From an uncultured Bacilli bacterium (GTDB lineage Bacteria; Bacillota_I; Bacilli_A; RF39; UBA660), in assembly GCA_947627675.1 (NCBI GenBank), contig CANQWY010000003.1:1-61393 (forward strand): a stretch of 61,393 nucleotides of DNA, read 5' to 3'. Every line of letters starts with the position of its first letter. Position 1 is the stretch's first letter. Made by a program: the position numbers and the translations under genes. Below are positions 10,007 to 50,787 of the stretch, in pieces. Under the pieces are notes generated by a model. That model did no database searches. It saw only the letters and a list, made by a program, of their open reading frames with translations, and was not told where the DNA came from.

Positions 10007-10726
10007 ATGTCGTTTAAATATCGGTATAGAAAACAAATAATTATTTGCTTGATAATTTTTTTAATATTAGGAAGTGGAATAGGTGGTTTGTTCTTTTTTA
10101 ATAAGAATTTTAAGAAATCAGTCAAAAAAGAAAAAGTAGTTCTTTCAAGTGAAAAGACCCCTGCTATTAAAAAAACAGCTACTAATAAAACAGATACTAA
10201 TAATAAAAAAATATTAAAAGTAGATATAAAAGGTGAAGTTATAAATCCTGGTTTGTATTCCTTAGAAGAAGGAAATAGAGTTAGTGATGTTATTCAAATG
10301 GCTGGTGGTCTCTCTGAAAATGGTGATACGACAGTTATTAATTTAAGTAAAAAAATAAAAGATGAAATGGTTATTATAATTTATAGTAAAGCAGAAGTTG
10401 AAGATTTTAAAAAGACAACTGAAATTATGGAACAAGTAATTGATAATTGTAAAAATAGTTACGAAGGTATTAGAAACGATGCTTGCATTGAATCTAATGA
10501 AACAGAAACAAATAATGAGTTTTCAGATTCTAATAATTTGATTTCTATTAATAATGCTACTTTAGAAGAATTACAAACCTTGCCAGGAATAGGGGAAGCC
10601 AAAGCCCAAAATATTATTAAATATCGAGAAGAACATGGCTTGTTTTCTGATATAAATGAACTTAAAAATATTGATGGTATAGGAGATAGTATCTTTGATA
10701 AGATTAAGGAAAATATTACTTTGTAA
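10007..10726 (+). CDS. comEA: Competence protein ComEA (SLBB plus helix-hairpin-helix DNA receptor)
   Basis: KVDIKGEVINPGLYSLEEGNRVSDVIQMAGG and INNATLEELQTLPGIGEAKAQNIIKYREEHGLF. ATG 10007 follows GGAGG. Confidence 0.9.
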   Translation: MSFKYRYRKQIIICLIIFLILGSGIGGLFFFNKNFKKSVKKEKVVLSSEKTPAIKKTATNKTDTNNKKILKVDIKGEVINPGLYSLEEGNRVSDVIQMAGGLSENGDTTVINLSKKIKDEMVIIIYSKAEVEDFKKTTEIMEQVIDNCKNSYEGIRNDACIESNETETNNEFSDSNNLISINNATLEELQTLPGIGEAKAQNIIKYREEHGLFSDINELKNIDGIGDSIFDKIKENITL

Positions 10727-12236
10727 TTATTTATATTATATATTCCTTCTATTTGTAATATTATTTTCTATAATTAGGATAAATGCTATACATAGAAGTA
10801 ATTATACTTCTAAAAGTAATAAGTTTATTGGTATTATTACTAATATTAAAATTGATGGAGATCTTTTACAATTTACTTTAAAAGATAAAAATAATGAAAT
10901 GGTAAAGGCTAATTATTTTTTTAAGAATTTGAAAGAAAAAAATAAATATCAATACTTTTTTAAACTGGGAGATAAAATAGAATTAAAAGCTAAGTTTATT
11001 AAAATTACTAAAACAACAACTAAAAACATTTTTAATTATCAAGAATATGCAATGAGAAAAAATATGTTTTATAATTTAGAAATTAATACCATTATTAAGA
11101 TTAGTGATAATAATAATTTTGTTTATTTTTTTAAAAATTTTATTTATGATTATTTTAATAATTTTAAAAATAGTAAATATTTAAAGCTTCTTTTATTAGG
11201 AGATAAAACTTATATAGATGAAGAAATTATATCTTCATTTAGAGAGAATGGTATTAGTCACTTATTTGCAATTAGTGGTATGCATGTTGGAATAATTACT
11301 TCTTTAATTTTAAATATTTTAAATGCCTTTAAAATTAGAGAAGAAAAAAGATATTTGATAGTATCTATATTTCTTTTTATTTACTTATTTTTAGTTGGAT
11401 CTTCTGCGTCCATAATGAGAGCTTTTTTATTTTTTGTCTTGATTAGTATTAACAAAATTTATTATTTTTATATAGATAATATTTATTTGTTTATTTTAAC
11501 ATTTTCGATAACCCTTTTAATAAATCCATTTTATATATATGATGTTGGTTTTCAATATTCTTTTTTAATAAGTTTTACGCTAATATTATCAAGCAATATT
11601 TTAAATAAATGTAATTCATATTTTATAAATTTATTTTTTACTTCTAGTATTAGTTTTTTCTCTAGTTTACCTATTACTTTATATCATTTTAATCAAATAA
11701 ATTTGTTGAGTATATTTTATAATTTATTTTTTGTCCCTTTAGTGACTTTACTTCTATTTCCTTTATCAATTATTATTTTAATATTACCATTTCTAGGTTT
11801 CATATATAATTTTTTAATATTAGTATTAGAGAAAAGTTCTTTATTTTTAAGTAGTATTGATACCTTTAAATTTATATTTGGTAAAATAAATATCTCTTTT
11901 TATTTTATTTATTATATTTTATTTTTTATGTTTTTGAAATACTATAAAAAGATATTTTTAATTATATTTTTCCTTATATTAATATTTCATTACTTTTTTT
12001 ATTCAATTTTTGATAGTGATTATTTAGTAATGCTAGATATTGGCCAAGGTGATAGTTTCATTATGCATAGTAAAAACAAAACTATTATGATTGATACAGG
12101 TGGTAAGGTAGTTTATACAAGTAAAAAATGGGCTAAGAAAAGTAAAAGCTCTATAGTATCAAATATAACAATTCCATATTTAAAAAGTAAAGGGATTAAA
12201 AAAATAGATTTTTTGGTACTTACTCATGGACATTGA
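10695..12236 (+). CDS. comEC: ComEC/Rec2 DNA-uptake channel, 5' portion interrupted by a prophage
   Basis: Polytopic ORF with GISHLFAISGMHVG, then the start of the MBL domain (MLDIGQGDSFIM...FLVLTHGH). The frame runs into phage DNA and stops at TGA 12234-12236, and resumes in frame at 50256. Confidence 0.9.
   Translation: MIRLRKILLCNYLYYIFLLFVILFSIIRINAIHRSNYTSKSNKFIGIITNIKIDGDLLQFTLKDKNNEMVKANYFFKNLKEKNKYQYFFKLGDKIELKAKFIKITKTTTKNIFNYQEYAMRKNMFYNLEINTIIKISDNNNFVYFFKNFIYDYFNNFKNSKYLKLLLLGDKTYIDEEIISSFRENGISHLFAISGMHVGIITSLILNILNAFKIREEKRYLIVSIFLFIYLFLVGSSASIMRAFLFFVLISINKIYYFYIDNIYLFILTFSITLLINPFYIYDVGFQYSFLISFTLILSSNILNKCNSYFINLFFTSSISFFSSLPITLYHFNQINLLSIFYNLFFVPLVTLLLFPLSIIILILPFLGFIYNFLILVLEKSSLFLSSIDTFKFIFGKINISFYFIYYILFFMFLKYYKKIFLIIFFLILIFHYFFYSIFDSDYLVMLDIGQGDSFIMHSKNKTIMIDTGGKVVYTSKKWAKKSKSSIVSNITIPYLKSKGIKKIDFLVLTHGH
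12225..12229. other. attL core (CATGG shared with attR)
   Basis: ...CTTACTCATGG|ACATTGAGTGTTACGCACACG; this is the only identity shared by the two junctions. Confidence 0.7.
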
Positions 12237-12252
12237 GTGTTACGCACACGAT

Positions 12253-13671
12253 TTATTTAAAAAAAACATGCCAATTATTTAAAGGATCTTCTTCATCTTG
12301 AACGATATGATCAATATACTCATACCAGAATAATCTTTTATTTTCACGTGTAAGTTTATTATATAAGTCCAAAGCATTATTAGATTTTAGTATTTTTTTA
12401 TATTTTTCTAAGTTTCTTTTTTTTATAGAAATATCACTCGAATCCAATTCTTGTATTTTTGTTTGAGTGGCATTATAATCGTTGTCATATTTCTCTTTTG
12501 TAATGCGGCCATCAAGATAAAGTTCATTAAGACGCTCTAATTTATCTTTTAATCGTTCTATTTTGTTAATATCTCTATTTGTACCTTGTTTTTCTTCGAC
12601 AGACTCAACAGAAATAACATAATCGTTTAGCATAATCAAAAAATTAGAAATAAGCCATTTTTCTAATTTATCCTCATTGACTGTATGATTATTAGAACAT
12701 CGACAATCAAGAAAATGATAGCAGCATTTATAAGTGCCATAGCGAATATGAGTACCATCTGCATGATTTCGTAAGGCTCTTGAACCACTCATTCTTCTAT
12801 CACAACAATAGCACTTAATAAGACCAGAAAAAATAAAGAGATGGTCGGAATGCGTATTAGATTTATGATTCTTATTAATTAAATCTATTATTTTTTGATG
12901 TCGTTCTTTTGAAATGTAGGGCTCGCAATATTCTTCAACTCCACGATAAACACCATGATACATACTATTTTTTAGCATGTGTTTAACTCTTTCATAAAGT
13001 ATAGGTCGTTGCGGATAATTATCATGTAAATATTTAGTAGTAGCACGAAGAGAAAGTGTTTCTTCAAATTTATCAAACATATCAATAGCCATTTGTGCTA
13101 GTTCTGGATCCTTAACAACTCTTTTATTTTGCTTTTCTCCCTCAATTTTATAGCCTATAGGAAGCGCACCAGAAATAGGTCGTTTATTGCGGACCATATT
13201 TTCAAAATTAAATTTAATTCTATCTGATGTTTGATCTGATTCGTTTTGAGCAATAGATAATTTAATATTAAGATATAAGCGACCGTTAGATGTAGATGTA
13301 TTAAATTCTTCATCAGAACATTCCCAATCAACGTTGTATTTATCTAATAAATCTTGGATACGATAATAATCTGCTACATTACGAAACCATCTATCAAGTC
13401 GCCAAATAATAATCCTATCGATTTTATCAGATTTGATATCATCAAGTAAGCGAAGAAGTTCTTTACGATTAGATATTTTTGTACGAGCAGATTTTCCCTC
13501 ATCGGCATAAATATCAACAATCTGGTAATTATGATTATTAGCCCATTCAATAAGTCTAGCCTTTTGACTTTCAATAGAGTAACCATGTTTTGCTTGCTCT
13601 TCTGTGGATACTCTAATGTATATTGCAACACGTATTATTTTATCCTTTATATTTTTATTAATTTTAGTCAT
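12253..13671 (-). CDS. int: Large serine recombinase (prophage integrase)
   Basis: N-terminal resolvase catalytic motif VAIYIRVSTEEQ...GYSIESQ, recombinase domain, Cys-rich zinc ribbon (CYCCDRRMSG...YKCCYH), C-terminal coiled coil. ATG 13671 follows GGGAGTG. Confidence 0.95.
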   Translation of the reverse strand: MTKINKNIKDKIIRVAIYIRVSTEEQAKHGYSIESQKARLIEWANNHNYQIVDIYADEGKSARTKISNRKELLRLLDDIKSDKIDRIIIWRLDRWFRNVADYYRIQDLLDKYNVDWECSDEEFNTSTSNGRLYLNIKLSIAQNESDQTSDRIKFNFENMVRNKRPISGALPIGYKIEGEKQNKRVVKDPELAQMAIDMFDKFEETLSLRATTKYLHDNYPQRPILYERVKHMLKNSMYHGVYRGVEEYCEPYISKERHQKIIDLINKNHKSNTHSDHLFIFSGLIKCYCCDRRMSGSRALRNHADGTHIRYGTYKCCYHFLDCRCSNNHTVNEDKLEKWLISNFLIMLNDYVISVESVEEKQGTNRDINKIERLKDKLERLNELYLDGRITKEKYDNDYNATQTKIQELDSSDISIKKRNLEKYKKILKSNNALDLYNKLTRENKRLFWYEYIDHIVQDEEDPLNNWHVFFK

Positions 13672-13689
13672 TAAAATCACTCCCAATTA

Positions 13690-13718
13690 TTGCGAAAATT
13701 TCTAATAAATGTTATAAT
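13690..13718 (+). promoter_or_regulatory. Sigma-A-type promoter (TTGCGA-17 nt-TATAAT) pointing away from int
   Basis: TTGCGA 13690-13695, exact 17-nt spacer, TATAAT 13713-13718. Confidence 0.55.
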
Positions 13719-13725
13719 TGAGGTA

Positions 13726-13816
13726 CACAAAAAAGAATTTTCGTGCTAGATTATTTTTTATTTGTGTACCTCTTTTTGAGGGTAGACTCATTGTTCGCTG
13801 CAATGGGTCTTTTTTA
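13726..13816 (+). ncRNA. Candidate ~90-nt small RNA: 12-bp hairpin with 29-nt loop, followed by an intrinsic terminator
   Basis: Hairpin 1: GAGGTACACAAA 13720-13731 / TTTGTGTACCTC 13761-13772, then T5. Hairpin 2: AGACTCATTG 13784-13793 / CAATGGGTCT 13801-13810, then T6. It starts right after the promoter at 13690, and no ORF is present. Confidence 0.35.
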
Positions 13817-13882
13817 TATTTCATTTTTAGTTTAGATTAATATACTATATAATATATCCCATAGAAAGGGGGAGGCAAAGCA

Positions 13883-13969
13883 ATGGATTTTTATTATTTT
13901 TATTATGAAATTTTAGATCTTAAAATAGATCCTTTAATATTGCTGTACTACATTGAATACTATTTATAA
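13883..13969 (+). CDS. 28-aa Tyr-rich small ORF (MDFYYFYYEILDLKIDPLILLYYIEYYL)
   Basis: A very strong SD (AAGGGGGAGG) lies 7 nt upstream of the ATG. Convergent with the repressor gene. No homology recognised. Confidence 0.3.
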   Translation: MDFYYFYYEILDLKIDPLILLYYIEYYL

Positions 13970-13980
13970 TATTCTTTTTT

Positions 13981-14358
13981 TTATTTTTTCATAATAAAGT
14001 TTTTGTTGGCTTTTGCAAATTCTATCAGTTTATTAAAATCATCTTCTGTCATTTCTTCGTTATCGTCTAAGAAACCCTTTCTTTTTAAGAAATCTTTTAA
14101 TAATTCTTGTTCTTCTTTTTCAGTTAATTTTTTTCTTTCACTTTTCATTGGTACATCAAAACCCATAAGCCAAATTTCATCTACATCAAAAAATTCTGCT
14201 AACAATGTTAGACTATCCTGTTTTGCTTTATAAGTACCAGAAATCCAATGACTTATTTGCGATTTGCTAATACCAGTTTTTTCCGATAGTTCAATAGATT
14301 TTATATTATTAAGATCCATTATTTTTTTTAATCGATTAGCAAATGTGTCAACTAGCAT
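13981..14358 (-). CDS. CI-like XRE-family repressor
   Basis: HTH_3 motif NIKSIELSEKTGISKSQISHWISG. Divergent from a cro-like gene. ATG 14358 lies 6 nt after GAGGTGAT; the ORF-track N-terminal extension is unlikely. Confidence 0.85.
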   Translation of the reverse strand: MLVDTFANRLKKIMDLNNIKSIELSEKTGISKSQISHWISGTYKAKQDSLTLLAEFFDVDEIWLMGFDVPMKSERKKLTEKEEQELLKDFLKRKGFLDDNEEMTEDDFNKLIEFAKANKNFIMKK

Positions 14359-14391
14359 TGTCATCACCTCATAAATTATTATATACAAAAA

Positions 14392-14509
14392 GTTGGGAAA
14401 AAACAACATAAATTGAATAGAAAACAAAAAAAGTTGGGAAAAGTTAAATTATTTTGTTGACAAGAAAAAAATTTAATGCTAACATTAAACTAGGTTGGGA
14501 AAACCCAAA
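14392..14509. promoter_or_regulatory. Immunity switch region: three GTTGGGAAAA operator copies and a rightward promoter TTGACA-17-TAACAT
   Basis: GTTGGGAAAA at 14392, 14433 and 14494. The third copy is the inverted repeat GTTGGG-AAAA-CCCAAC. TTGACA 14457-14462, TAACAT 14480-14485. A fourth copy lies at 14750-14759. Confidence 0.65.
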
Positions 14510-14527
14510 CTGAACGGAGGTGATAAA

Positions 14528-14788
14528 ATGAAAAGAAGTTATGATTATTCCAAATTAAGAGGACGAATTGTTGAAAAACTAGGATCTATCAAGAAATATG
14601 CGGAATTATTAAACTTATCTGATACATCAATTTCAAATAAATTAAGTAATAGAACACCATTTAATCAAGACGAAATATTAAGAAGTGTCGAATCAGATGT
14701 ATTGGATATTGATGTAATGGAAATCCCTAAATATTTTTTTATGCAAAAAGTTGGGAAAATCCAAACAATCAAAGAAGATAATTTATAA
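14528..14788 (+). CDS. Cro-like early regulator (DUF739-type HTH)
   Basis: MKRSYDYSKLRGRIVEKLGSIKKYAELLNLSDTSISNKLSNRTPF...IPKYFF is a typical Firmicute phage Cro analogue. ATG 14528 follows GGAGGTGA. Confidence 0.7.
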   Translation: MKRSYDYSKLRGRIVEKLGSIKKYAELLNLSDTSISNKLSNRTPFNQDEILRSVESDVLDIDVMEIPKYFFMQKVGKIQTIKEDNL

Positions 14789-14818
14789 AAATAGCACGAA
14801 AATTCTACGGAGGTAGTT

Positions 14819-14947
14819 ATGGAAAGTAAAGAAACTACTAATAAAAATGTATTAATTGATAAGAGAGAAGATATTATAAAATTCCTAATTATATTATATG
14901 AAAATCAAGAAAAAATAAAACTTTCTTATCGATTACAAAAATCATAG
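14819..14947 (+). CDS. 42-aa small ORF downstream of cro
   Basis: ATG 14819 lies 6 nt after GGAGG (14808-12). Below the ORF-track cutoff. Its SD abuts the 15-nt sequence complementary to the sRNA loop. Confidence 0.35.
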   Translation: MESKETTNKNVLIDKREDIIKFLIILYENQEKIKLSYRLQKS

Positions 14948-15007
14948 AGGAGGAACGCAGATGAAAAAATAAAAATATTTTATGTAAAAAAATTTGGAGG
15001 TATCAAA

Positions 15008-15274
15008 GTGTTTAAAATCATAATAGGAATGATAATAGGTATCATTTTAACTTTAATAATTTTAGCAATTCAACATTATTTAAAAGATAATAACTTGAGA
15101 ATAAATTGGAAGAACGTACTTATTGCATTAGGCGTAATTTTAATTATAGTTTGGTTAATTTACAATTTTATGAGTTTAACAATTGGACCAGAATATACTA
15201 AATCAAATGGTAACATATGTAAAGGTTATAGATATGGATTAAAAATTTGTTGGGGCGATATAAATGTTGAATAA
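15008..15274 (+). CDS. Small two-TM membrane protein
   Basis: GTG start after GGAGG. Two hydrophobic helices (IIIGMIIGIILTLIILAI, ALGVILIIVWLIYNF). Confidence 0.5.
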   Translation: MFKIIIGMIIGIILTLIILAIQHYLKDNNLRINWKNVLIALGVILIIVWLIYNFMSLTIGPEYTKSNGNICKGYRYGLKICWGDINVE

Positions 15275-15411
15275 AAAAAGAATTATGAGAAAAACGCAGA
15301 TCTTCATAATTCTATATTGTAAAATTGTAAATTTTATGTAAATTTACTTCTTTAGTATATCAAAGATTAGAGAGTAAATCAATATATGGACAAATTAAGA
15401 GAGGTGGTGTA

Positions 15412-16224
15412 ATGAAAAAAGTAAATAATTATTTTTCACATGATTTTAATGCAAGAAATGATATTAAGCTAAAAAAAGTAATAGCTAATTTAGGAATACA
15501 GGGCATTGGACTTTATTGGTGTATTATCGAATGTTTATATGAAAATAACGGGTATTTATCACTTGATGATATTAAATTATTAGCTTATGAATTAAGAGTT
15601 GATGAGAATTTAATTAAAAATTTAATTAAAAATTTTAATTTATTTAAGATAAATAGTAAGAATAAATTTTACTCTCAAAGTGTTTTGAATAGATTAAATG
15701 AAATAGAAAGTAAGTCACAAAAAAATCGAGAAAATGCTTTAAAACGTTGGAAAAAAAATAATGAAGATGTAATTCAATTGCAAAACAATTGTAATGCGAC
15801 CGCATTGCAAACGGAATGCTATATAAAGAAAAAAAAAATAAAAGAAAAAATAAAAAAAGAAAATAATAATAAATTATTAACTATAACAGAAAAAGATAAT
15901 ATATATAACTATGTTGAAGTTAACTTTGGGAGATTATTATCACCAATTGAGTTAGAAAAAATCAGTCTGTGGTCGTCAGAATATAAAGAAGAAATTTTAA
16001 AATATGCAATTTCAATAGCAGTTATGAATCGTAAAGCAACATTTGCTTACGTAGAAGGTATTTTAAAAAATTGGAAAGCAAAAGGTTTTGAAACATTAGA
16101 TGAAATAAAAGAAAATGATTTATACGGTCTAACAGCAATTCGTAAAAAAGAAAAATCTTTAGATTCTCAAGATGATACGGAAATATTTGATTATAATTGG
16201 TTTGAAGAAGATGAACATGATTAA
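15412..16224 (+). CDS. Phage replication initiation/replisome organiser (DUF4373 N-terminus plus DnaD domain)
   Basis: YFSHDFNARNDIKLKKV...GIQGIGLYWCIIECLYE (Lin1244-like) and C-terminal FGRLLSPIELEKISLW...FAYVEGILKNWKAKG (DnaD). Confidence 0.8.
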   Translation: MKKVNNYFSHDFNARNDIKLKKVIANLGIQGIGLYWCIIECLYENNGYLSLDDIKLLAYELRVDENLIKNLIKNFNLFKINSKNKFYSQSVLNRLNEIESKSQKNRENALKRWKKNNEDVIQLQNNCNATALQTECYIKKKKIKEKIKKENNNKLLTITEKDNIYNYVEVNFGRLLSPIELEKISLWSSEYKEEILKYAISIAVMNRKATFAYVEGILKNWKAKGFETLDEIKENDLYGLTAIRKKEKSLDSQDDTEIFDYNWFEEDEHD

Positions 16225-16333
16225 AAAATTAAGATAGCTATATATAATGTCAAAAAAATTTAAAATATCAATTTTTTTCAAAAGTATATTTAGTTGAATG
16301 TTTAATTTTAATATTTAAAGAAAGGAATTAATT

Positions 16334-16888
16334 ATGTTTAGAAGTTTTAATGATTGGCTATCTTTAAAAGTTGATTTGTTTAAAGAAAATATAAGTATTA
16401 AATTTTCTGGATATAAAGAACTTTGGAAACAGCAAAATATAGAACTAGATCACATGCGTCTTAATAGGAATAAAGAAAAAACGAGATATGAAAATATTAT
16501 TAAAACCAAAAATAGTGATATTATACAGTTACAATTAAAACAAGATGTTTTGAAAAATAAATTAAGTAAAATTGAAGAAAAGCATGAAAAGTATAAAATC
16601 AAAAGTGAGAAAGAATATTTGGATCTTATGAATAAGTATCAGGATGTTACTTTAAAACTTCAAGATGTAGTTTTAAAAAAAAGAAAATTGGCTTCAAGTA
16701 AAGGTGGCCTAAATTCAAAAATAAGATATCAAGAACAAAAAATCAAAAAATATGAAACAGAAAATAAAGAAATTAAAAAATTATTGCAAAAAATTATTCA
16801 AGAAAGTAAGAGAAAACTTACCTCCGCTACTCGTAAAGAATTAGAAGATTATAATTTATTTGGCAATAGGAAAGGAAAAAGAAGATGA
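16334..16888 (+). CDS. Coiled-coil early protein, function unknown
   Basis: Lys/Glu-rich heptad-like sequence. Overlaps the next gene with ATGA. Confidence 0.5.
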   Translation: MFRSFNDWLSLKVDLFKENISIKFSGYKELWKQQNIELDHMRLNRNKEKTRYENIIKTKNSDIIQLQLKQDVLKNKLSKIEEKHEKYKIKSEKEYLDLMNKYQDVTLKLQDVVLKKRKLASSKGGLNSKIRYQEQKIKKYETENKEIKKLLQKIIQESKRKLTSATRKELEDYNLFGNRKGKRR

Positions 16889-17187
16889 ACAGATTTGAAG
16901 TAACTTCAATTAGAGTTAAGAAATTAATTAAAAATGAAGATTCTAATATCGTGGGAACAGCAAGTATTGTAATAAATGGATCATTTCTTGTCCATGACAT
17001 TAGAATAATTAATACAAAAAATAAAATGTTCTGTGCAATGCCGTCAAGAATGTTAGAAGATAAAACTTTTATGGATATATGTCATCCATTAAATGCAGAT
17101 ATAAGAAAATATATCGAAAATTTAATATTATCAGAATTTATAAATCTGAGGGAGGGGGAACCAAGTGGAACATTATATACAAAATAA
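16885..17187 (+). CDS. Phage-encoded SpoVG-family nucleic-acid-binding protein
   Basis: FEVTSIRVKKL...GTASIVINGSFLVHDIRIINTKNKMFCAMPSRMLEDKTFMDICHPLNADIRKYI matches the SpoVG core (VHDIRVI...FVAMPSR...DIxHPIN). Confidence 0.8.
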   Translation: MNRFEVTSIRVKKLIKNEDSNIVGTASIVINGSFLVHDIRIINTKNKMFCAMPSRMLEDKTFMDICHPLNADIRKYIENLILSEFINLREGEPSGTLYTK

Positions 17188-17437
17188 AGATTTTAATAAG
17201 CAATCAGCTGATATGTCAATTTTAATTGATTCTAAAAAATTAGAAGAGTATATTTTATCAAAAATATTAAAAATAAAAAGTCCATTATTTAATGTAAAAG
17301 TAAAACAAGAAGAAATTTTAAAAATTATAGTTAGTTTTGATGATAGAAAAGAATGTTTTGAGATATTTAATGTAACACTAGAAGTATTAGATGTAACTAT
17401 CGAAAAAGTAAATAAATATGTGGAGGAAATATGGTAA
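17165..17437 (+). CDS. Hypothetical early protein
   Basis: Co-directional packed ORF with a GTG start after a G-rich SD; no motif recognised. Confidence 0.45.
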   Translation: MEHYIQNKDFNKQSADMSILIDSKKLEEYILSKILKIKSPLFNVKVKQEEILKIIVSFDDRKECFEIFNVTLEVLDVTIEKVNKYVEEIW

Positions 17438-17739
17438 AAGTGGTGTTATTAACGATTATTTATATTTTGATTATTCTAGGATTTTATGTATTAGGCTTTC
17501 TTCTAGGAAAAAATGATGGATACAAAGAAATGAAAGATTTATCAGTAAGTAGTCAAATTAAATGTGAAAGATTAAAAATGATTATTAGAGCCCACCGAAA
17601 CATGTTATTAAGAGAAGAAACTCGATTAAAAGCATTACCTAAAGAGGAACAAAAAAATAATGCTATTGAGTATGTTGATATTAAAGCAAAATTAAAACTT
17701 ATAAGAAAAATTGAGGAGGATATATCTAATGAAATGTAA
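17431..17739 (+). CDS. Hypothetical protein with an N-terminal TM helix
   Basis: ATG after GGAGGAAAT; VVLLTIIYILIILGFYVLGFLL. Confidence 0.5.
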   Translation: MVKVVLLTIIYILIILGFYVLGFLLGKNDGYKEMKDLSVSSQIKCERLKMIIRAHRNMLLREETRLKALPKEEQKNNAIEYVDIKAKLKLIRKIEEDISNEM

Positions 17740-17992
17740 AAAATACGATCAATCCTGGTTTGATAATAAATATATTCAAATATTAAATATGATGTGTACA
17801 CCAGAGAAAAAATTACAAAGATTAAATGATTTTATGAAACTTGCTAAAAAACATGATATTGTTCCAAAAGCTACTATAAGAAGTAAAGAAAAATTTGTTC
17901 GTGAAGATTTTAGAATTCCTAAAACTAGGAGGGCTATTCGTACAATAAAAGCAAGTCTTAAAAGAAAACGAAATAAAAGGCGATTCAAATGA
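17729..17992 (+). CDS. Hypothetical basic protein
   Basis: ATG 17729 lies 9 nt after AGGAGG (17714-19). Lys/Arg-rich C-terminus. Confidence 0.5.
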   Translation: MKCKKYDQSWFDNKYIQILNMMCTPEKKLQRLNDFMKLAKKHDIVPKATIRSKEKFVREDFRIPKTRRAIRTIKASLKRKRNKRRFK

Positions 17993-18189
17993 GTAATATC
18001 AAATATATTGTAGTTTGTAAAAAAGGATACTGTTTTGCTTGTGATGAAGAAACTGTATATGATTTTATAAATGAGCATGGTACAAATATTGCTTATTATA
18101 TTGGATATTTTAAACCAATAACTAATATTGCCGAATTTCTTGGCTTGAATACTAATATAGAAAATTTAGGTAGTGGAATTGAAAAGTAA
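17989..18189 (+). CDS. Hypothetical small protein
   Basis: ATGA overlap with the upstream gene. Confidence 0.45.
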   Translation: MSNIKYIVVCKKGYCFACDEETVYDFINEHGTNIAYYIGYFKPITNIAEFLGLNTNIENLGSGIEK

Positions 18190-19921: not shown

Positions 19922-20114
19922 ACAATTATATTATGATTCACAGTATGAAATAAAACAACTTAAAAAGAAAATCCAGGAATTAGAAAATGATTTAAATTTA
20001 GTAAAGAAGTCAGATAAAAGAAAAATAGAACTTAAAAAGGAAATTATGAAAGAATTTAATAATTTCAAAAATAAAGAAAAGGAAGAGGTGAAAGAAATTG
20101 AAAAAATACAATAG
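19908..20114 (+). CDS. Hypothetical coiled-coil protein
   Basis: Packed co-directional ORF. Confidence 0.4.
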   Translation: MIDYEQLYYDSQYEIKQLKKKIQELENDLNLVKKSDKRKIELKKEIMKEFNNFKNKEKEEVKEIEKIQ

Positions 20115-42337: not shown

Positions 42338-45300
42338 TAAGAATTTATAGTAATGATTGTAAAGATTTCAATAATAATGGTCTTGGTATATTATTGGATT
42401 TTAAAACATCACCAAAAATTACGGAATCTTTAAATGGAAATTTTGAATTGAATTTTGATTATGCAATTAAGGGAAAAAATGTTGAACATTTAATTGTTGA
42501 TAATATTATAAAAGCTCCATATGACGGGAAGAATCAATTATTTAGAATAAAAAAAGTAAAACCTAATCTATCAAAAATAAATATTTATGCAGCGCATATA
42601 TTTTATGATTTATCAGAGAATTTTCTTGTTGATGTTGCTCCAACACAAAAGAATGCAGTAAATGCTATTAGTTGGCTATTAGAACACGCAATGTTTAAAA
42701 CAAATTTTTCTATAACGGGTGATACCAGTGCAATTTTATCTGCAAGATATGTTAGAAAAAATATAGTTGATGCTATTTTAGGAGCAGATAACTGTATTGT
42801 AAAAAAATGGGGTGGAGAAATAGAAAGAGATAACTTTAATATAATCTATCATTGCCAAAGAGGAGCAGATCGAGGAGTTCGAATTAAGCAAGGTAAAAAT
42901 ATAAAAGAAGTAGAACTTGAAATTGACTTTACGAGCGTTGTTACTCGCATAATACCTCAGGGAGCAAATGAGTTATTACTTCCAGAAATCTATGTTGATT
43001 CACCTATTATAAATACATATAGAAATCCTATTGTGGCTAAATATGAATTTAATGATATAGCTGTAGATGATAATACTACAGAAGACCAGGCCTATGAATT
43101 ATTAAGAGAAGCAGCTAAAAAATTATTTTCGGATGATAATATAGATAAACCTACTATATCAGTTAAAGTAAATTGGTTGGAATTATCTAAAACAGAAGAG
43201 TATAAAAATTATAGTAATTTAGAATATGTACGATTAGGAGATACTGTTACAGTACAAGCTTTAGGCTATGAATACAAAATTCGTGTTATAAAGGTTGTTT
43301 ATGATTGTTTACTTAATACATATACATCATTTGAAATAGGCGATCCTAAAGCTGATTTTGTAAGTAATACGGTAGATAATATTGCTACTCAAATTCAACA
43401 AAATTCATCTAGTATATTACAGCAAGCAAAACAAATGGCCACGGCTCTTATTAATAATGGATTTGGCGGTAATGTAAGAATTTATCCAGATCGTATTTTA
43501 ATTATGGACACAGATAATGAAGCAACAGCTAAAAATGTATGGCAATGGAATCTAAATGGATTTGGACATTCTTCTACAGGTATCGATGGTAAATATGAAA
43601 CAGCAATAACTATTGATGGTCAAATTGTTGCAAATAGTATTACAACAGGAAAAATGAGTGCAGAGAGAATAGAAGGATTAAATCAAATCCTTTTATCATT
43701 AAAAGAGAAAGATATAGAATTACAATTAGGTCAAGATAATATATCAAGCAAAGTTAGTGAAAGTGAAACTATAATCAGAGATATAACTACAACAACTCAA
43801 ACATCAATAGGTAAAAAATATTTATATTTGTTGGATGCTTTGGGAAGTATTATTCTTGAATACATTATTTATGGAAAAAGTGAGCAAGACGTAACATTTC
43901 AACAGGAAAGTGATAATCTTTTTGATATAAATTTATGGAAAAATGGAAAAATAGGAGTAAATCAAGGTAACATAGTAATTGATGATAATTCAATAACGAT
44001 GTCAAATCCAACAGCAAAAGATCAATACAATACAGGAACATTTCATGGTAATGCAACACCAACTGAAGATCAAATAAATATAGTTAAAAAGTATGGAATA
44101 GAGGTAACACCATCAACTTTATATACACTATCATATGATAATGAAAATAGTACATTAAGCCAGTGTTTTATTTTCTGGTATGATGAAAATTATGTTTATA
44201 TTAGTAATGCTAATCTTTATAGTGCAGATGCAAGATGTGTGTTAACTGCTAATTCATCAATAAATGCAAAATATGCAACAATAAGATTTGATAATGAAGG
44301 ATATGAAACAGAACAGACAGAATTAAAAATATCTAAAATTTCATTTAAAATAGGAAAAGATGGGACATATAGTAAATTTGTATCACCAAAGCCAAGCCCA
44401 AACTATTCAAGTGAAATAGAAAGTGTAAGAGGAATTGAAAATTTATTTGATAAAAATAACCCCAATATTATAGATGGTAAATATTTAAATACAACAGGAT
44501 ATGAGACATCAAATTCTGGATTTTGTATAACCCAATATATACCAATAGAACAAGGCAAATATACATATTCAGGTTTAACAGTAAAACCTGAATGGGCTGC
44601 TAAAATGTGCTTATATGATGCAAATAAAACTTTTCTTAGTTATAAAGATCAAACTTCATCTGAGGTATTAACAATAGATTCAAAGGCTAAATATATAAGA
44701 TTTTCGTTTTACAAAGAAGAAAAAGAAAGTTTTATGTTAGAAAGGGGCAAAGTTGCTCATAAATATGTTCCATATGGTAATTGGTTAATAATAAAACAGA
44801 TAGGCGCTAATATATTAAATTATAATGGTACTTATTCTAAACATTTTAGTAATTATTATTCTTTTGTTATTGATGTACCAAAATATGCTTTAGAAAAAGG
44901 CAAAACATATTATTTTAGTGTTGACGTTCAAACTATCAATAATGGTACTGCCAATTCTATTCGATTTTTACCACAAACATCTATTAGTTATTCTATGAAT
45001 AGAATTAACTCACCAACTTTAAGCAAAGATATTCAAAGATATGTTTTTTCTATTGTTTCCAATGAAGATATTATTTCTTCTCAAATTGCTGTGCAAAGTG
45101 ATAATGCGAGTTCTAGTTGTCAAATTCAATTTACACATTTTATGATTAGTGAAGAAAATATTCCCTACGAGCCATATAAAGAACAAGAAATACTTATTGA
45201 CATGGCTAAGAAATCTTTATTTGATGGAATATTTTCACAAGGATTTATATCAGCACAGGGAGTTGAAGGAGTTGTTGAAAATCAAATATATACACCTAAT

Positions 45301-46926
45301 TATATAAAAGTACAACCTAATACAAAGTATATATATTCTAACGATCAAAATATAAAAATAAATTATATAGCATTGTATGATAATGATAAACAATTTCTAA
45401 AAAGAATAAGTTGTAATGCATTTGAATATACGACAGATAGTGATACTTATTATATAAGATTTACTAATTATAACGGTTCAAAAATAATACCAGAAGACGT
45501 AACAAATGCAAGTTTGTTAGAGGCAGGAGATAATTATTATGAATTGGCTTCTTTAAGTGATGAGGATAATATATTCGATGGAATTTTTGAACAAGGTTTA
45601 ATAGGCCAAAATGGTAGTATTAATAGCAGTAATACCCAGCAAATTTATACTTTAAACTACATTCCTGTTAATCAAAATTCTAGATATGTATATTCAAACG
45701 ATCAAAATCAAAAAGTAAATTATTTAGCCAAGTATGATAAAAATAAAAATTTTATAGAAAGAGTAGCTTGTAGTAGTTCAGTTTTTATAACTGATTCTTC
45801 TACATATTATATAAGATTTACTAATTATATTGGCTCTGGTATAACGCCAGATTATATAACGAATGCTACATTGGTAGAAAGAAAATATGATTTACCTATG
45901 CCAAATATTAAAGATACTCTAAAAATAGAAAATGGGCAAGCTATATTAACAAAAAATATGGGTAAATATGTATTTACTGGTGATGAAGATTTTGATGCTG
46001 ATAGTGGAACAGTAGGGGTTGATTATAGACATGCTATTAAAATAAGTAAATTAAATATTCCTCAGCCGAATTATGGATATCGTGGTAATGCAATATCTTC
46101 TCATTTTATAGGAAAAGCATCTAATACAGAAGAATTTGGCAGTTTTTATATATCAAGTTCCTGGTGTGTATTTACAGATAAAAATAAATTATATGATTTA
46201 AATGGATTTAAGCAATTTTTAAAAGAACAATACAACAATGGAACTCCTGTAACTGTGTATTATGTATTAGAAGAGCCATATGAGATTAATTTAAGCATTA
46301 GTAAAGAATTAGAACTATTTACTAATATTAATAACATTACTTTCATAGACAAGCTCGATATTCAACCAACTGTGAGGGCCAAATATTTAAGAAATACACC
46401 TCTATCATATGATTATGCTACAAATCAGAGAGTAGATAATACAGACAAAAATGTATTTAATAATCAGAATCAAATAAATAATGTTGCAAGTGATTTGAAT
46501 GATACAAACACTAATTTATATAACAATTATTATAATAAAGAACAAGTTGATTATATGAAAAGTACAACAGAAGAACAAATAGTACAAATAAAAAATACAG
46601 TAGAAACTAATACAACAGCAACTAATCTTCAGATATCAGTGTTAGAAGAAAAACTTATAAATGGTGTTACCTCAGTAAAAACAGAAACAGGTTATATTTT
46701 TGATAAAGATGGATTAAAAATTGGTAAAAGTGATAGTGAAATGAATTTATTACTAGATAATGATGGACTAGCTGTAAAAAGAAATAATGATGAAGTACTT
46801 ACAGTTCGTTCTAGCGGTGTTGAAACAGAAAATTTAAAAGTTAGAACCTATTTTCATATAGGTAGTAATACTCGTGTCGAAGATTACAAAGAAGGTACGG
46901 GTTTTTTTCATATAGGAGAGTGGTAG
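42334..46926 (+). CDS. Tail-associated lysin / baseplate hub (Tal) with multiple C-terminal carbohydrate-binding-like modules and a coiled-coil tip
   Basis: 1530 aa. The N-terminus resembles a prophage tail endopeptidase region. Internal ~118-aa repeat modules at 44443-45925. Confidence 0.75.
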   Translation: MIRIYSNDCKDFNNNGLGILLDFKTSPKITESLNGNFELNFDYAIKGKNVEHLIVDNIIKAPYDGKNQLFRIKKVKPNLSKINIYAAHIFYDLSENFLVDVAPTQKNAVNAISWLLEHAMFKTNFSITGDTSAILSARYVRKNIVDAILGADNCIVKKWGGEIERDNFNIIYHCQRGADRGVRIKQGKNIKEVELEIDFTSVVTRIIPQGANELLLPEIYVDSPIINTYRNPIVAKYEFNDIAVDDNTTEDQAYELLREAAKKLFSDDNIDKPTISVKVNWLELSKTEEYKNYSNLEYVRLGDTVTVQALGYEYKIRVIKVVYDCLLNTYTSFEIGDPKADFVSNTVDNIATQIQQNSSSILQQAKQMATALINNGFGGNVRIYPDRILIMDTDNEATAKNVWQWNLNGFGHSSTGIDGKYETAITIDGQIVANSITTGKMSAERIEGLNQILLSLKEKDIELQLGQDNISSKVSESETIIRDITTTTQTSIGKKYLYLLDALGSIILEYIIYGKSEQDVTFQQESDNLFDINLWKNGKIGVNQGNIVIDDNSITMSNPTAKDQYNTGTFHGNATPTEDQINIVKKYGIEVTPSTLYTLSYDNENSTLSQCFIFWYDENYVYISNANLYSADARCVLTANSSINAKYATIRFDNEGYETEQTELKISKISFKIGKDGTYSKFVSPKPSPNYSSEIESVRGIENLFDKNNPNIIDGKYLNTTGYETSNSGFCITQYIPIEQGKYTYSGLTVKPEWAAKMCLYDANKTFLSYKDQTSSEVLTIDSKAKYIRFSFYKEEKESFMLERGKVAHKYVPYGNWLIIKQIGANILNYNGTYSKHFSNYYSFVIDVPKYALEKGKTYYFSVDVQTINNGTANSIRFLPQTSISYSMNRINSPTLSKDIQRYVFSIVSNEDIISSQIAVQSDNASSSCQIQFTHFMISEENIPYEPYKEQEILIDMAKKSLFDGIFSQGFISAQGVEGVVENQIYTPNYIKVQPNTKYIYSNDQNIKINYIALYDNDKQFLKRISCNAFEYTTDSDTYYIRFTNYNGSKIIPEDVTNASLLEAGDNYYELASLSDEDNIFDGIFEQGLIGQNGSINSSNTQQIYTLNYIPVNQNSRYVYSNDQNQKVNYLAKYDKNKNFIERVACSSSVFITDSSTYYIRFTNYIGSGITPDYITNATLVERKYDLPMPNIKDTLKIENGQAILTKNMGKYVFTGDEDFDADSGTVGVDYRHAIKISKLNIPQPNYGYRGNAISSHFIGKASNTEEFGSFYISSSWCVFTDKNKLYDLNGFKQFLKEQYNNGTPVTVYYVLEEPYEINLSISKELELFTNINNITFIDKLDIQPTVRAKYLRNTPLSYDYATNQRVDNTDKNVFNNQNQINNVASDLNDTNTNLYNNYYNKEQVDYMKSTTEEQIVQIKNTVETNTTATNLQISVLEEKLINGVTSVKTETGYIFDKDGLKIGKSDSEMNLLLDNDGLAVKRNNDEVLTVRSSGVETENLKVRTYFHIGSNTRVEDYKEGTGFFHIGEW

Positions 46927-46927
46927 A

Positions 46928-48706
46928 ATGGCTATATTTTTAGGAAGTAAAAACTTTAATGGATATAATGGTTCACACTTTTCATTGCATGTTTACGTAG
47001 ATAGTTATTCTCAAGATATAGCAAATAATTCAACAACAACAATATTTCATTTATATTTAGTATCAAGTGACGGATATTCAGGTAGTGGAGTTGCAACACC
47101 AGGATATATAAATAATAATCAAGTAGGTAGCATTTCATCTATTGGACGAAATGCTACTGTTAGTGTTGGCACTTTTACACAAACTGTAAGTCATGCTGTT
47201 GATGGTACTTTAAATTGGTATTGGGCAGTTTCAATGTCATTTGTTTGGGCTGGCATTGGTAGTTGTTCTTTAGATGGGTGGTGGACTGTACCAACAATTC
47301 CAAGATCAAGTTCTGTATCGTGTACAGATGGGAATATAGAAAGTGCAGTATCAATAAATATTAATCGTGCAAGTGCAAGTTTTTTGCATAATTTGAGATA
47401 TGTCTTTGGCAATTTATCGGGGACAATAGCAACAAATATTGCTACAAATTATGGTTGGACGTTGCCAGCCACTTTTTATTCACAAATACCAAATTCTAAA
47501 TCAGGGACTTGTGTTATTTATTGTGATACTTATAATAATGGAAATTTAATAGGAACAAGCTCAGCAGTTTTTAATGTAGGAACCGACGAGAATAAATGTT
47601 TGCCCACATTTAATACAACTATTATTGATAGTAATTCTATGTCAACGAATTTAACTGGAGATCCAAATAAATTGATAAAATATATTTCTAATGCACATAT
47701 AACAACTTCTGCAACAGCCAAAAATAATGCTAGTATAAAAAGTATTAATATTACTTGTGGAGATGGAAAAACAGCAATAGGAAGTGATATAACATTAAAA
47801 AAAGTAGAAAGTGGAGATTTTACAGTAACAGTAATTGACAGTCGGGGATATATAAAAGCTCAGACATTAAATAAAAAAATAATTAATTATATAGTTTTAA
47901 CACTTAATGCAACTTTTGTACGTGTTGAACCTACAACAGGTGAGGTCCTTTTAAAATATGATGGCAACTATTTTGATGGAAATTTTGGTAAAACTAATAA
48001 TAATTTAACTATAAAATATAGATATAGAGAAAATACAAATTATAAATGGAGTGATTATATAACATTATCACCTGTTATAAAAGAAAATACTTATAGTCAA
48101 GAAATTAGTTTAGGAAAAGATTTTGATTATCAAAAGGCATATAATTTTGAAATACAAGCTATAGATAAAATAGTAACAGTTGTTGATGATGCTGAAAAAA
48201 TAACAGAAGGTATTCCGATGCTAGCTCTATTTAAAGAAATGATAGAAATGTTTGGAATAGAAGCTTTTAAAATATTAAATAATAAATTAGTTATAAATGG
48301 TGAAATACAGATAGAAAACGTAAATATAGCTTTGAAAGACGTTATTAATAATGTTTGTTTTATAGAAGAAACAGAAGATGGTAAATGGATGTATAAAAAA
48401 TATGAAAATGGACTAATAGAAATTTATCACAGAGTAACAGATATATCATTAAATACAACAATATTCTATCAAGATCCTACAGGGCCTGGTATATTTTATC
48501 AACAAAGTGGTAATATTAATTATCCGATTGAATTAACAGAATTAATATCTATTAATAGTACTGTTCTTTGTGAATCACATTTACCATATATAACAATAAA
48601 AGAAGCTACTAATACTTATTATCAAATATTTATAAGTAATATAAAAAGAGTAGATGGAGATTTTAATTTTAGTTATTTTACCAGAATTGTTGGTAGATGG
48701 AAATAG
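46928..48706 (+). CDS. Receptor-binding / tail fibre protein (DUF859, Gp37-like)
   Basis: N-terminal ...SHFSLHVYVDSYSQDIANNSTTI...WWTVPTIPRSS pattern of DUF859 siphovirus proteins. Confidence 0.6.
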   Translation: MAIFLGSKNFNGYNGSHFSLHVYVDSYSQDIANNSTTTIFHLYLVSSDGYSGSGVATPGYINNNQVGSISSIGRNATVSVGTFTQTVSHAVDGTLNWYWAVSMSFVWAGIGSCSLDGWWTVPTIPRSSSVSCTDGNIESAVSININRASASFLHNLRYVFGNLSGTIATNIATNYGWTLPATFYSQIPNSKSGTCVIYCDTYNNGNLIGTSSAVFNVGTDENKCLPTFNTTIIDSNSMSTNLTGDPNKLIKYISNAHITTSATAKNNASIKSINITCGDGKTAIGSDITLKKVESGDFTVTVIDSRGYIKAQTLNKKIINYIVLTLNATFVRVEPTTGEVLLKYDGNYFDGNFGKTNNNLTIKYRYRENTNYKWSDYITLSPVIKENTYSQEISLGKDFDYQKAYNFEIQAIDKIVTVVDDAEKITEGIPMLALFKEMIEMFGIEAFKILNNKLVINGEIQIENVNIALKDVINNVCFIEETEDGKWMYKKYENGLIEIYHRVTDISLNTTIFYQDPTGPGIFYQQSGNINYPIELTELISINSTVLCESHLPYITIKEATNTYYQIFISNIKRVDGDFNFSYFTRIVGRWK

Positions 48707-48718
48707 GAGGATAAAGAA

Positions 48719-48934
48719 ATGGAAGAATTTATAAAAATGCTTAGTAATTATGGAGTAACGGTTGTTATTGTTGGCCTTTTTCTTTGGGATTGGTTTAGCA
48801 ATAAAAAAGATATGAAAGACACATTATCAGTAATAAAAGATACATCAATAAATATTTCAAAAAGCTTAGATTTACTACAAAAAAGTACTGACAGGCAAGA
48901 AGAAAAATTAAATAAAATATTAGAAAAGAGGTAG
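48719..48934 (+). CDS. BhlA/UviB-type holin-like protein
   Basis: N-terminal TM (GVTVVIVGLFLWDWF) plus a charged coiled C-terminus. Lies upstream of the holin and lysin. Confidence 0.45.
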   Translation: MEEFIKMLSNYGVTVVIVGLFLWDWFSNKKDMKDTLSVIKDTSINISKSLDLLQKSTDRQEEKLNKILEKR

Positions 48935-48940
48935 AAAGAA

Positions 48941-49150
48941 ATGAAAAATAAAACTTATGATTTTTTAAAAAGAATTGCAATGTATGTTTTACCAGCTTTA
49001 GCAACTTTAGTAATGACAATTTTTAAAATATGGAATTTACCATATGGTGAAGAAATTGGAGCAACTATTACAGCTATTGATACAGCGTTAGGTATAATAC
49101 TAGGAATTTCAACAGCAAAATACAATCGATATAATATGGAGAGTGAATAA
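48941..49150 (+). CDS. Holin (Dp-1 family-like)
   Basis: MKNKTYDFLKRIAMYVLPALATLVMTIFKIWNLPYGEEIGATITAIDTALGIILGIS. Confidence 0.6.
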   Translation: MKNKTYDFLKRIAMYVLPALATLVMTIFKIWNLPYGEEIGATITAIDTALGIILGISTAKYNRYNMESE

Positions 49151-49151
49151 T

Positions 49152-50087
49152 ATGTTAAAAGGGAAAAAATCAATTAGAAATGGTATAGAGGACTTTTTAT
49201 GTCCGTTTACAGATATGTATATATCTCAAGGAAGTAATGGAGCATATTCACATAGAGGAATAATGGCAAATGATGTAAGAGGAATACAGGCAGGAATTAA
49301 ATATCCTTATTATGCACCTTGTACTTGTAAATGTCTTAAAACTTATCCTGAAAGCGGGCAAGTAATGTGGCAATCTATTAATAAAGTAAGATTTGCTAAT
49401 GGTCGAGTTGATTATGCAACGTTTATGACTTGTCACGATGATACTATGAATGCAAAAATAGGACAAGTAGTAGAACAAGGACAACAATTAGGTAATATGG
49501 GGACTAAAGGAAATGCGACAGGAGTACATTGCCATATAGAAGTTAGTCAAAGTTCTGATACTTCATGGATTAAAAATCAATATGGTATTTATCATTTTAA
49601 TAATGAATATGATTTAGATGATTGCTATTTTGTAGATAACACTAATATTATTAAAGGTAATGGTAGTAATTGGAGAACAACAAATGATGTAAAAGTAGAC
49701 GAAATTATCCCTCAACAAACAGCAGATCAATTATTATATCCTGGAAGTAAAGTTAAATTTGATGGTATATTTAAAGCAGATATATTAAAACGTAACTCTA
49801 ATTTATTTGGATGTATTCAACTTACAGGAGTTAGTTATAATGACTACTATAATGAGAAAGCTAAAGGTTATCACTGGATACCACTTAATGACTTTACAGA
49901 AGTGGATAGATATGGAAATTCTCAAGGTCAAGATGATATTATAACAGGAGGAAGTTCATACGTAATTAACAAAAATATATATGAAGTAAAAGAAATAGAT
50001 ACTAAAACTAATTCAGCTAAATTAAATATAAACGGAAGAGATGTTTGGGTATTTTCAATATACTTGTATGAGGTAAGTAATAATTAA
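49152..50087 (+). CDS. Endolysin: M23-like metallopeptidase with a C-terminal SH3b-like wall-binding domain
   Basis: GQQLGNMGTKGNATGVHCHIEV resembles the M23 HxH motif. Last gene before attR. ATG 49152 lies 8 nt after GGAGAG. Confidence 0.6.
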   Translation: MLKGKKSIRNGIEDFLCPFTDMYISQGSNGAYSHRGIMANDVRGIQAGIKYPYYAPCTCKCLKTYPESGQVMWQSINKVRFANGRVDYATFMTCHDDTMNAKIGQVVEQGQQLGNMGTKGNATGVHCHIEVSQSSDTSWIKNQYGIYHFNNEYDLDDCYFVDNTNIIKGNGSNWRTTNDVKVDEIIPQQTADQLLYPGSKVKFDGIFKADILKRNSNLFGCIQLTGVSYNDYYNEKAKGYHWIPLNDFTEVDRYGNSQGQDDIITGGSSYVINKNIYEVKEIDTKTNSAKLNINGRDVWVFSIYLYEVSNN

Positions 50088-50091
50088 TATA

Positions 50092-50128
50092 AGAGGTTAG
50101 TCATATTACATGATTAGCCTCTTTTTTG
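50092..50128 (+). terminator. Rho-independent terminator closing the late operon
   Basis: AGAGGTTAGTCAT / ATGATTAGCCTCT 13-bp stem (G-U pairs), 5-nt loop, T6. Confidence 0.8.
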
Positions 50129-50250
50129 TTTATATGTAGGATTCTAACTAAATAAGTAACAGAATATTATTAAAATAAAATTATATAGTAATTACCTCGC
50201 ATTGCTAGTATTTTTTTATGCTTTTTTATGTGCATAACCGTTAATTACCA

Positions 50251-50255
50251 CATGG
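50251..50255. other. attR core (CATGG)
   Basis: ...GTGCATAACCGTTAATTACCACATGG|GGATTTGGATCAT. Confidence 0.7.
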
Positions 50256-50787
50256 GGATTTGGATCATTTAGGGGAGGCTGTTAATTTAATTAATAATTA
50301 TAAAGTAAAAAAAGTCTTTATCAATGAGGGAAAGATAAATAATTTAGAAAAGGAAATTATTAATACAGCAGATGATGTAGAAGTATGTTATCAAAATACT
50401 TATTTTGAAGTAGGAGAGTTTAAATTTTATTCATTAAATAAAGATTTAAAAGATGAAAATAGTAGTAGTATAGTTCTTTATATTTTATATAAGAATTTGC
50501 AAATGCTGTTTATGGGAGATGCCAATTTTAAAAGTGAAAATTACTTAATTAATAATTATAATTTAAATAAAATAGATATATTAAAAGTGGGACATCACGG
50601 AAGTAAAAGTAGCTCTAGCATAGATTTTTTAAAAAGAATAAGACCATCTATTGCCCTTATTTCAGCAGGTAAAGATAATAAGTTTAATCATCCTAATAAA
50701 GAAGTTATAGAAAGACTTAATATGTACAATGTTAAATATTATTCTACTAAGGATATTGGAACTGTTGAATTTATATTATCAAGATAG
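50256..50787 (+). CDS. comEC: ComEC 3' portion (remainder of the metallo-beta-lactamase nuclease domain)
   Basis: (G)DLDHLGEAVNLI...ILKVGHHGSKSSS...LISAGKDNKFNHP. In frame with 10695-12229 once the prophage is removed. Confidence 0.85.

Follow-up and report, generated by a model that had tools for sequence, protein, structure and literature searches.

The DNA considered here (the window) is a stretch of 61,393 nucleotides, positions 1 to 61,393 of contig CANQWY010000003.1 in assembly GCA_947627675.1, from an uncultured Bacilli bacterium of the RF39 lineage (UBA660). In it the competence gene comEC, which encodes the channel and nuclease of DNA uptake, is interrupted on the + strand at 12225/50251 by a prophage with a large serine integrase. 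A first-pass annotation had placed such a prophage within the metallo-beta-lactamase (MBL) motif of comEC, downstream of an intact comEA, and every coordinate it gave was recovered in our analysis. In the lysogen the 5′ comEC open reading frame (ORF) runs from 10695 to 12236 and its product ends in ...FLVLTHGH*, the final codons, GGA CAT TGA, being phage DNA. When 10695-12229 and 50256-50787 are joined, the resulting 2067 nt read in frame as 688 codons and a single terminal stop, with ...LVLTHGDLDHLGEA... across the join. The joined 688-aa protein scores 305.4 bits with TIGR00361 (the ComEC/Rec2 equivalog; cutoff 190), covers positions 9-661 of the 663 in that profile, and contains the Pfam domains Competence (PF03772, 1.7e-48) and Lactamase_B (PF00753, 4.6e-18). 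This nearly full-length match agrees with the earlier expectation that conservative excision would rebuild an intact comEC, and neither half of the gene has an internal stop, frameshift or secondary lesion.

When the joined protein is aligned with 119 full-length homologues the junction is gapless and falls inside the sequence T-H-G-D-x-D-H-x-G-E of MBL motif 2, which reads THGDLDHLGE in the window. Residues H511, D513 and D515 are invariant (120 of the 120 sequences, the window ComEC included), and G512, H516 and G518 occur in 119 of them. A gapless junction in such near-invariant columns is far beyond chance. The split arrangement is real and not chimeric, since identical host–phage junctions are present on nine contigs from several samples; these, together with analogous junctions in dozens of independent assemblies, rule out an assembly chimera. 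That prophage-free relatives should have a matching, in-frame sequence at this point holds at the protein level, in the 119 homologues. No prophage-free conspecific was found, the nearest full-length ComEC among 5.8 billion proteins being 64% identical, and the empty-site comparison was accordingly made on the protein motif.

The integrase ORF, read from a TTG codon, encodes 477 aa (472 aa in its homologues) and keeps the YIRVST serine motif (S21) along with every other residue on which 24 homologues agree. Its stop codon lies 23 nt from the att core, as first reported. The two cores do share the pentanucleotide CATGG, but junctions from other lysogens show this 5-bp identity to be incidental and replace it by the dinucleotide CA as the crossover. 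(Here and below, L-numbers denote sampled contigs or loci of relatives, P-numbers denote integrase variants, and a slash in a sequence marks a junction.) Both ends of a second lysogen, with a prophage of about 36.0 kb, were recovered on contig ERZ27242022:k141_128301 (L099 and L016). Their join gives a 692-aa ComEC that matches the ComEC profile built here over positions 3-688 of 694, and neither in this lysogen nor in the window does the join gain or lose a base. The attL of the second lysogen reads …ACC CAT GGA… and its attR …CCA CAC GGC GAC…, so the base that follows CA is phage-derived in attL and host-derived in attR. In addition, the junctions at L018, L019 and L119-121 read CA/A, and the base 5′ of CA differs among hosts. 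Because of the CAT/CAC difference, the CA/A junctions and the variable preceding base, we place the exchange at the CA of the catalytic His511 codon. As CA is not a palindrome, the insert can take one orientation only.

The symmetry of attP confirms the crossover independently, for its dyad is centred on CA. The rebuilt attP has the form GTGCATAAC-N12-CA-N12-GTTACGCAC, and the site is an imperfect palindrome of about 44-50 bp, GTGCAYAAC-N12-CA-N12-GTTAYGCAC. Compared as inverted repeats about CA, the arms match at 18-19 of 30 positions. Imperfect dyad arms around a 2-bp crossover are the normal anatomy of serine-integrase sites.

Homologues of the integrase number in the hundreds in gut metagenomes, and the genes beside them show what this group of enzymes enters. 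The P0123 integrase is 92% identical to that of the window, and the same 472-aa protein is found on more than 100 contigs. We sampled the P0123 phage at ten places. All ten agree at 99.8% identity over 5.4 kb on the phage side, and the host sides mostly share no similarity, or at most a weak one (65-75%) over short stretches. Seven of the ten host sides are comEC 5′ fragments whose mutual identity is only 31-43%, each ending in …[TS]HG followed by the phage-derived H*. The same phage also enters other genes with an MBL fold: L008 breaks off at …VLITHG, 53 residues into a stand-alone MBL hydrolase (Lactamase_B, 28.1 bits, cutoff 22.7), and L009/L010 at …VFITHG, 55 residues into a Lactamase_B_3-like protein. 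Further comEC hosts come from the P0371 integrase variant. More widely, integrases that are 96% (L110), 92% (P0123), 76% (L018), 72% (L118), 67% (L119-121) and 64% (L019) identical to that of the window all adjoin a comEC 5′ fragment, and these fragments all stop at the same profile position, 511/512. Every comEC 5′ fragment sampled is an intact ORF. Counted as distinct targets, there are 15 comEC flanks, which stand for at least 15 unrelated host backgrounds, and two other MBL genes.

Outside this clade the target changes. The P0156 integrase (59% identical; L111 and L112) adjoins a 163-aa fragment of a histidine phosphatase gene (His_Phos_1) that ends in …LLLSH/; the DNA of its left half-site is similar to the comEC half-site. 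Integrases at 46-48% identity (L020, L021, L022 and L024) and at 52% (L113 and L114) sit in ABC-transporter ATPase genes, at codons of the Walker B/D-loop region, with junctions that read …DEPF/SALDYQTRL…, …LLLDEPFA/ and …LADEPTG/. A single phage accounts for both L113 and L114, each in a different ABC gene. Since the same phage uses MBL genes other than comEC, and sister clades use ABC-ATPase codons, what defines the target is a DNA motif and not competence function. The integrase family as a whole looks like one that targets the DNA of catalytic motifs in ubiquitous superfamilies; the specificity of the window integrase's own clade is for MBL motif 2, (I/L)(T/S)-H-G-D-x-D-H, chiefly in comEC. 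As a separate observation, a tblastn search of ComEC against phage records returned mostly MBL domains that are phage-encoded or contaminating. A stand-alone MBL domain like that of ComEC (30-36% identity to its residues ~445-685) is encoded by many deposited phage genomes, among them GBSV1, c-st and several gut phage contigs, and is unrelated to integration.

Four contigs are in the attP form, in which the core links the integrase gene to late genes of the phage: L011, L104, L107 and L109. They belong to relatives whose integrases are 92-96% identical to that of the window. L011, an IMG/VR contig 99.85% identical to the P0123 phage, has genes for an endolysin, tail-fibre assembly and a reverse transcriptase, and L104 and L107 are free forms of the P0371 type. 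The integrase of L109 has 96% identity to that of the window. This contig aligns to window positions 12225-15326 (94.8%) and then to 50211-50255 (95.6%), the two blocks overlapping at the shared CATGG, and it contains exactly the attP string predicted beforehand, TTAATTACCACATGGACATTGAGTG. On L017 (a contig of 36,006 bp), L105, L106 and L107, the ends lie at the att core or within a few tens of bases of it. Ends at this place are consistent with an assembly graph that branches between attP and several attL/attR contexts in one sample.

The insert itself (Table 1) has a G+C content of about 27%, against about 22-24% in its flanks. Lysogeny-control, replication, packaging, head, tail and lysis modules were all found as uninterrupted genes, and by its predicted gene content the insert is a complete siphovirus-type temperate phage. 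Other ORFs in it resemble an HNH endonuclease and a methyltransferase, both uninterrupted, and RtcB. The first-pass annotation had read decay and possible domestication into the start of the HNH gene and into the RtcB-like gene. The former is ruled out, since the HNH_3 domain is intact and the free-form relative L011 has the same gene layout, with the same short upstream ORF; the latter does look partial. Decay of the phage as a whole is contradicted, and no sign of domestication was seen: the genes for morphogenesis, lysis and lysogeny control are all intact, no catalytic residue of the integrase is lost, and relatives are near-identical in many hosts and have free forms.

Several features of these phages stand apart from the integration site. 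The tyrosine-type recombinase is XerC/D-like and lies in mid-prophage, just upstream of the packaging genes and far from both att sites. A phage homologue of SpoVG (16885-17187, + strand; PF04026, 86 bits) has the same position in the related phages L001-L010. In relatives of the P0123/P0371 type a reverse transcriptase lies beside a tail-fibre-assembly gene ahead of the lysis genes (L011, 9681-11214; L016, 1755-3282; L017, 1771-3304), a layout that resembles a diversity-generating retroelement; in the window phage the tail-tip module is of another kind and a reverse transcriptase is absent. On the host side, an ORF of 899 aa between dnaI and thrS (51773-54472, + strand) matched no Pfam family. 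The housekeeping proteins of the window fall into singleton clusters, and its relatives carry the labels 'uncultured Bacilli bacterium' or 'Erysipelotrichaceae'.

Table 1. Features of the interrupted comEC gene and of the prophage within it; positions are those of the window.
Feature	Position	Strand	Remarks
comEA, DNA receptor	9992..10726	+	Intact, overlaps comEC start; Pfam SLBB and HHH_3; TIGR00426 78.5 bits (cutoff 53.1)
comEC, 5′ part	10695..12226	+	OB/DUF4131, Competence channel domain, start of MBL domain up to CA of His511
attL core	12225..12229	+	CATGG, common to attR; crossover CA 12225-12226
attL phage arm (right arm of attP)	12227..12256	+	TGGACATTGAGTGTTACGCACACG…; identical or near-identical in all related junctions; dyad symmetry with attR arm
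Prophage	12227..50252	+	38,026 bp including one CA copy; similarity of relatives begins and ends exactly at the cores
Large serine integrase	12253..13686	-	Pfam Resolvase PF00239, Recombinase PF07508, Zn_ribbon_recom PF13408
CI-like repressor (HTH_3)	13981..14427	-	
Cro-like DUF739 protein	14495..14788	+	Divergent from repressor
DnaD-like replication initiation protein / helicase loader	15412..16224	+	phrog_2562, phrog_186
Tyrosine-type recombinase (second recombinase)	28659..29534	+	PF00589 and SAM-like N domain
Terminase small and large subunits	31127..33143	+	phrog_5110, phrog_9
Portal, ClpP-like head maturation protease, major head protein	33159..36222	+	phrog_12, phrog_94, phrog_10
Tape measure, Dit, 1530-aa tail protein, DUF859 tail protein	38967..48706	+	phrog_58, 33, 1067/5555, 372
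Holin and M23-peptidase endolysin	48941..50087	+	Holin phrog_881; endolysin phrog_9066/11037; also marked by Pfam
attR phage arm (left arm of attP)	50221..50250	+	…ATGTGCATAACCGTTAATTACCA; joined to attL phage arm in free-form L109 (95%-related phage)
attR core	50251..50255	+	CATGG; crossover CA 50251-50252
comEC, 3′ part	50253..50787	+	Remaining MBL nuclease domain: third base of His codon, then …GDLDHLGEA… to stop
attB of window host, rebuilt			…GGTACTTACTCATGGGGATTTGGATCAT…
attP, rebuilt			…TTAATTACCACATGGACATTGAGTG…

Taken together, it is likely that the window holds an intact temperate siphovirus-type phage, probably inducible to judge from its relatives, whose serine integrase uses the DNA of MBL motif 2 in comEC as its attB. 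We take the family to be one of active, widely spread temperate phages that are common in low-GC gut Bacilli. On integration the enzyme pairs its ~44-50 bp attP with the motif 2 codons and exchanges strands at the CA of the catalytic His codon. ComEC is thereby cut after residue 510 with only the CA of the His511 codon left, and the phage arm completes the codon and adds G-H-stop. The lysogen's ComEC, ending in …THGH*, would keep its OB and channel domains and lack most zinc-binding residues of the nuclease domain. ComEC nuclease activity has been reported to be important for transformation of Bacillus subtilis (Silale et al. 2021, as cited in PMC12378983). Excision by the integrase and a putative recombination directionality factor would restore comEC exactly and would normally be the first step of lytic induction. 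As for the choice of site, it was most likely selected because, among hosts that are AT-rich and very divergent, the motif codons are almost the sole conserved DNA, and because the gene they belong to is dispensable, so that an MBL-motif landing pad would be usable in many hosts. We favour this conserved landing pad because other MBL genes are used and because the sister clades use ABC-ATPase motifs.

A number of points weigh against this account. All nine contigs of the window's host–phage pair are in the integrated state. Searches of IMG/VR with the exact attP left-arm and full attP strings of the window phage gave no match, and neither did searches of JGI metagenomes with the family-wide attP pattern and the rebuilt attB of the window host. 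Of the attB and attP junctions predicted in the first-pass annotation, then, attP was found in the relative L109 and none was found for the window's own phage and host in these two collections. Family searches of the phage gave no candidate for the recombination directionality factor; to our knowledge, such factors form no single recognisable family. The RtcB-like ORF (24251-25189, + strand; 312 aa) covers only positions 138-374 of 426 in the Pfam RtcB profile and is partial against PHROG profiles as well. Either an accessory gene has been truncated here or the phage has a short variant, and no RtcB signal was found in the small ORFs that neighbour it. The assignment of the L009/L010 target to the MBL fold combines the motif with a Pfam match below threshold (17.5 bits, cutoff 24). 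Lastly, we infer from the absence of most zinc-binding nuclease residues in the truncated ComEC that natural transformation is lost or strongly reduced while the phage is integrated, and within the window, which takes up the whole contig, comEA is the only other competence gene, the remaining ones of the host lying outside it.

The most serious alternative concerns the reason for the choice of comEC. It is possible, though we hold it only tentatively, that the gene was chosen because abolishing transformation shields the prophage from deletion by homologous DNA, and not as a conserved landing pad. Modelling indicates that mobile elements gain from blocking competence (PMC4774983), a survey of serine integrases reports that their targets are enriched for competence genes (PMC10083194), and 15 of the 17 distinct targets counted here are comEC. 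However, the same phage occurs in MBL genes that have no part in competence, and related integrases occur in ABC-ATPase and histidine-phosphatase genes. The two ideas are in any case compatible, and sequence alone cannot separate them: on the landing-pad reading too, the prophage may profit from blocked transformation, being then less exposed to curing by recombination.

Active lysogeny is defined by conditional, non-lytic excision, and the first-pass annotation had proposed a candidate regulatory switch of this kind. On such a reading the prophage would leave without lysis when DNA uptake is needed, restore comEC, persist as an episome and later reintegrate, as phi10403S does at comK. The architecture fits: a serine integrase and an intragenic site, with the prophage inside a functional host gene that precise excision restores exactly. 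So does the state of the gene, the comEC halves being free of stops and frameshifts in the window and in the second lysogen and all sampled 5′ fragments being intact ORFs, and the precedent in Listeria is a fully functional phage (PMC7397523). However, exact restoration and undecayed halves are what any recent conservative integration would give. The phage is 99.8% identical across many hosts, which points to recent insertions, and it is because integration is recent that the halves would be undecayed. The in-frame rebuild put forward as evidence for a switch is no such evidence, being the automatic outcome of conservative site-specific recombination. Moreover, the target follows a DNA motif and not a pathway, as the other MBL genes and the ABC-ATPase motifs of the sister clades indicate; no host-specific co-adaptation is visible; and neither the nine contigs nor the IMG/VR and JGI searches gave evidence of an empty site or episome for the window host. 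The complete lytic gene set is neutral here, since it neither supports nor excludes excision uncoupled from lysis. What speaks for the switch is an architecture common to every intragenic serine-integrase prophage, nothing beyond it points to such a function, and we consider the proposal unlikely. Its wider form, that the phage family is a reversible on/off switch for DNA uptake in gut Bacilli which under some host condition excises without killing, restores ComEC and reintegrates, appears less likely still. If true, active lysogeny would reach beyond the regulator comK and include the uptake machinery itself, in many lineages of hosts.

That the prophage is cryptic or domesticated, having lost excision and particle production and left comEC permanently inactive and on its way to a pseudogene, is improbable: it would fit the partial RtcB-like ORF, the failure to find a free form of the exact window phage and the nine of nine integrated contigs, but every essential module is present as full-length ORFs, RtcB is accessory, the integrase catalytic residues are conserved, the att arms have 95% identity with the arms of a relative known in the attP form, and comEC has no secondary lesions.

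We therefore return to an intact temperate phage using MBL motif 2 as its attB, and compare it with known systems. The skin element in sigK and SPbeta in spsM of Bacillus are likewise intragenic elements excised by a serine recombinase with the reading frame rebuilt. Excision of both is part of a developmental programme in the terminal mother cell, and in the case of skin the element is a defective remnant, whereas the window phage is by all appearances complete and mobile, with no developmental link visible. The Listeria phages A118 and phi10403S in comK resemble it in being functional temperate phages with a serine integrase, and precise excision restores a competence gene (PMC7397523). There the target is a regulator and conditional, non-lytic excision has been demonstrated; here the target is the channel/nuclease and the system is known from architecture alone.

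Closest in target are the streptococcal elements Phi1207.3, Phi10394.4 and Tn1207.1, phage-type elements with serine-family recombinases that lie inside comEC (celB) at a fixed dinucleotide; insertion of Phi1207.3 / Tn1207.1 abolishes competence (PMC4260502, PMC6079230). They differ in their crossover, GA and not CA, in having three recombinases (two of them in tandem), in their macrolide-resistance cargo and in their streptococcal hosts; the Phi1207.3 record has no host flanks in which its position could be set against the MBL motif. A prophage in comEC with a tyrosine integrase has been listed for Variovorax (PMC9658991), and a 2025 review tabulates mobile-element insertions into competence genes (PMC12378983). 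The large serine recombinase survey (Durrant et al. 2022, PMC10083194) gives competence genes as the most enriched target pathway, with the Pfam family 'Competence' (the ComEC domain) and the GO competence term both enriched among targets, and describes diverse integrases that converge on single conserved sites in coding sequences. Its elements resemble the present ones in preferentially disrupting competence genes; in the text searched no mention of ComEC by name or of lactamase was found, and no description of this gut Bacilli phage family, of a crossover at a catalytic His codon or of the use of both comEC and other MBL genes by one phage.

Insertion of mobile elements in comEC, and the enrichment of competence genes among serine-integrase targets, are thus already published, and the split comEC of the window is a well-resolved example that will not surprise a specialist. 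In the literature searched we found no description of the gut Bacilli phage family, of strand exchange within the codon for the catalytic His of MBL motif 2, of one phage using several MBL-fold genes, or of the specificity of the sister clades for ABC-ATPase motifs.

The locus gives a base-pair view of how a common family of gut temperate phages would disable the DNA-uptake nuclease/channel of its hosts, and it is a clean addition to what is known of the conflict of mobile elements with natural transformation. Of greater use is what holds for the family: with one integrase specificity, for the codons of a catalytic motif, a nearly identical phage appears to lysogenise hosts whose ComEC proteins have just 31-43% identity and to enter other MBL-fold genes too, and sister clades do likewise at the Walker B motif of ABC ATPases. 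The result has a bearing on the host range of phages among uncultured, low-GC Bacilli, and it points to natural serine integrases with a landing pad already present in almost any genome that has comEC.

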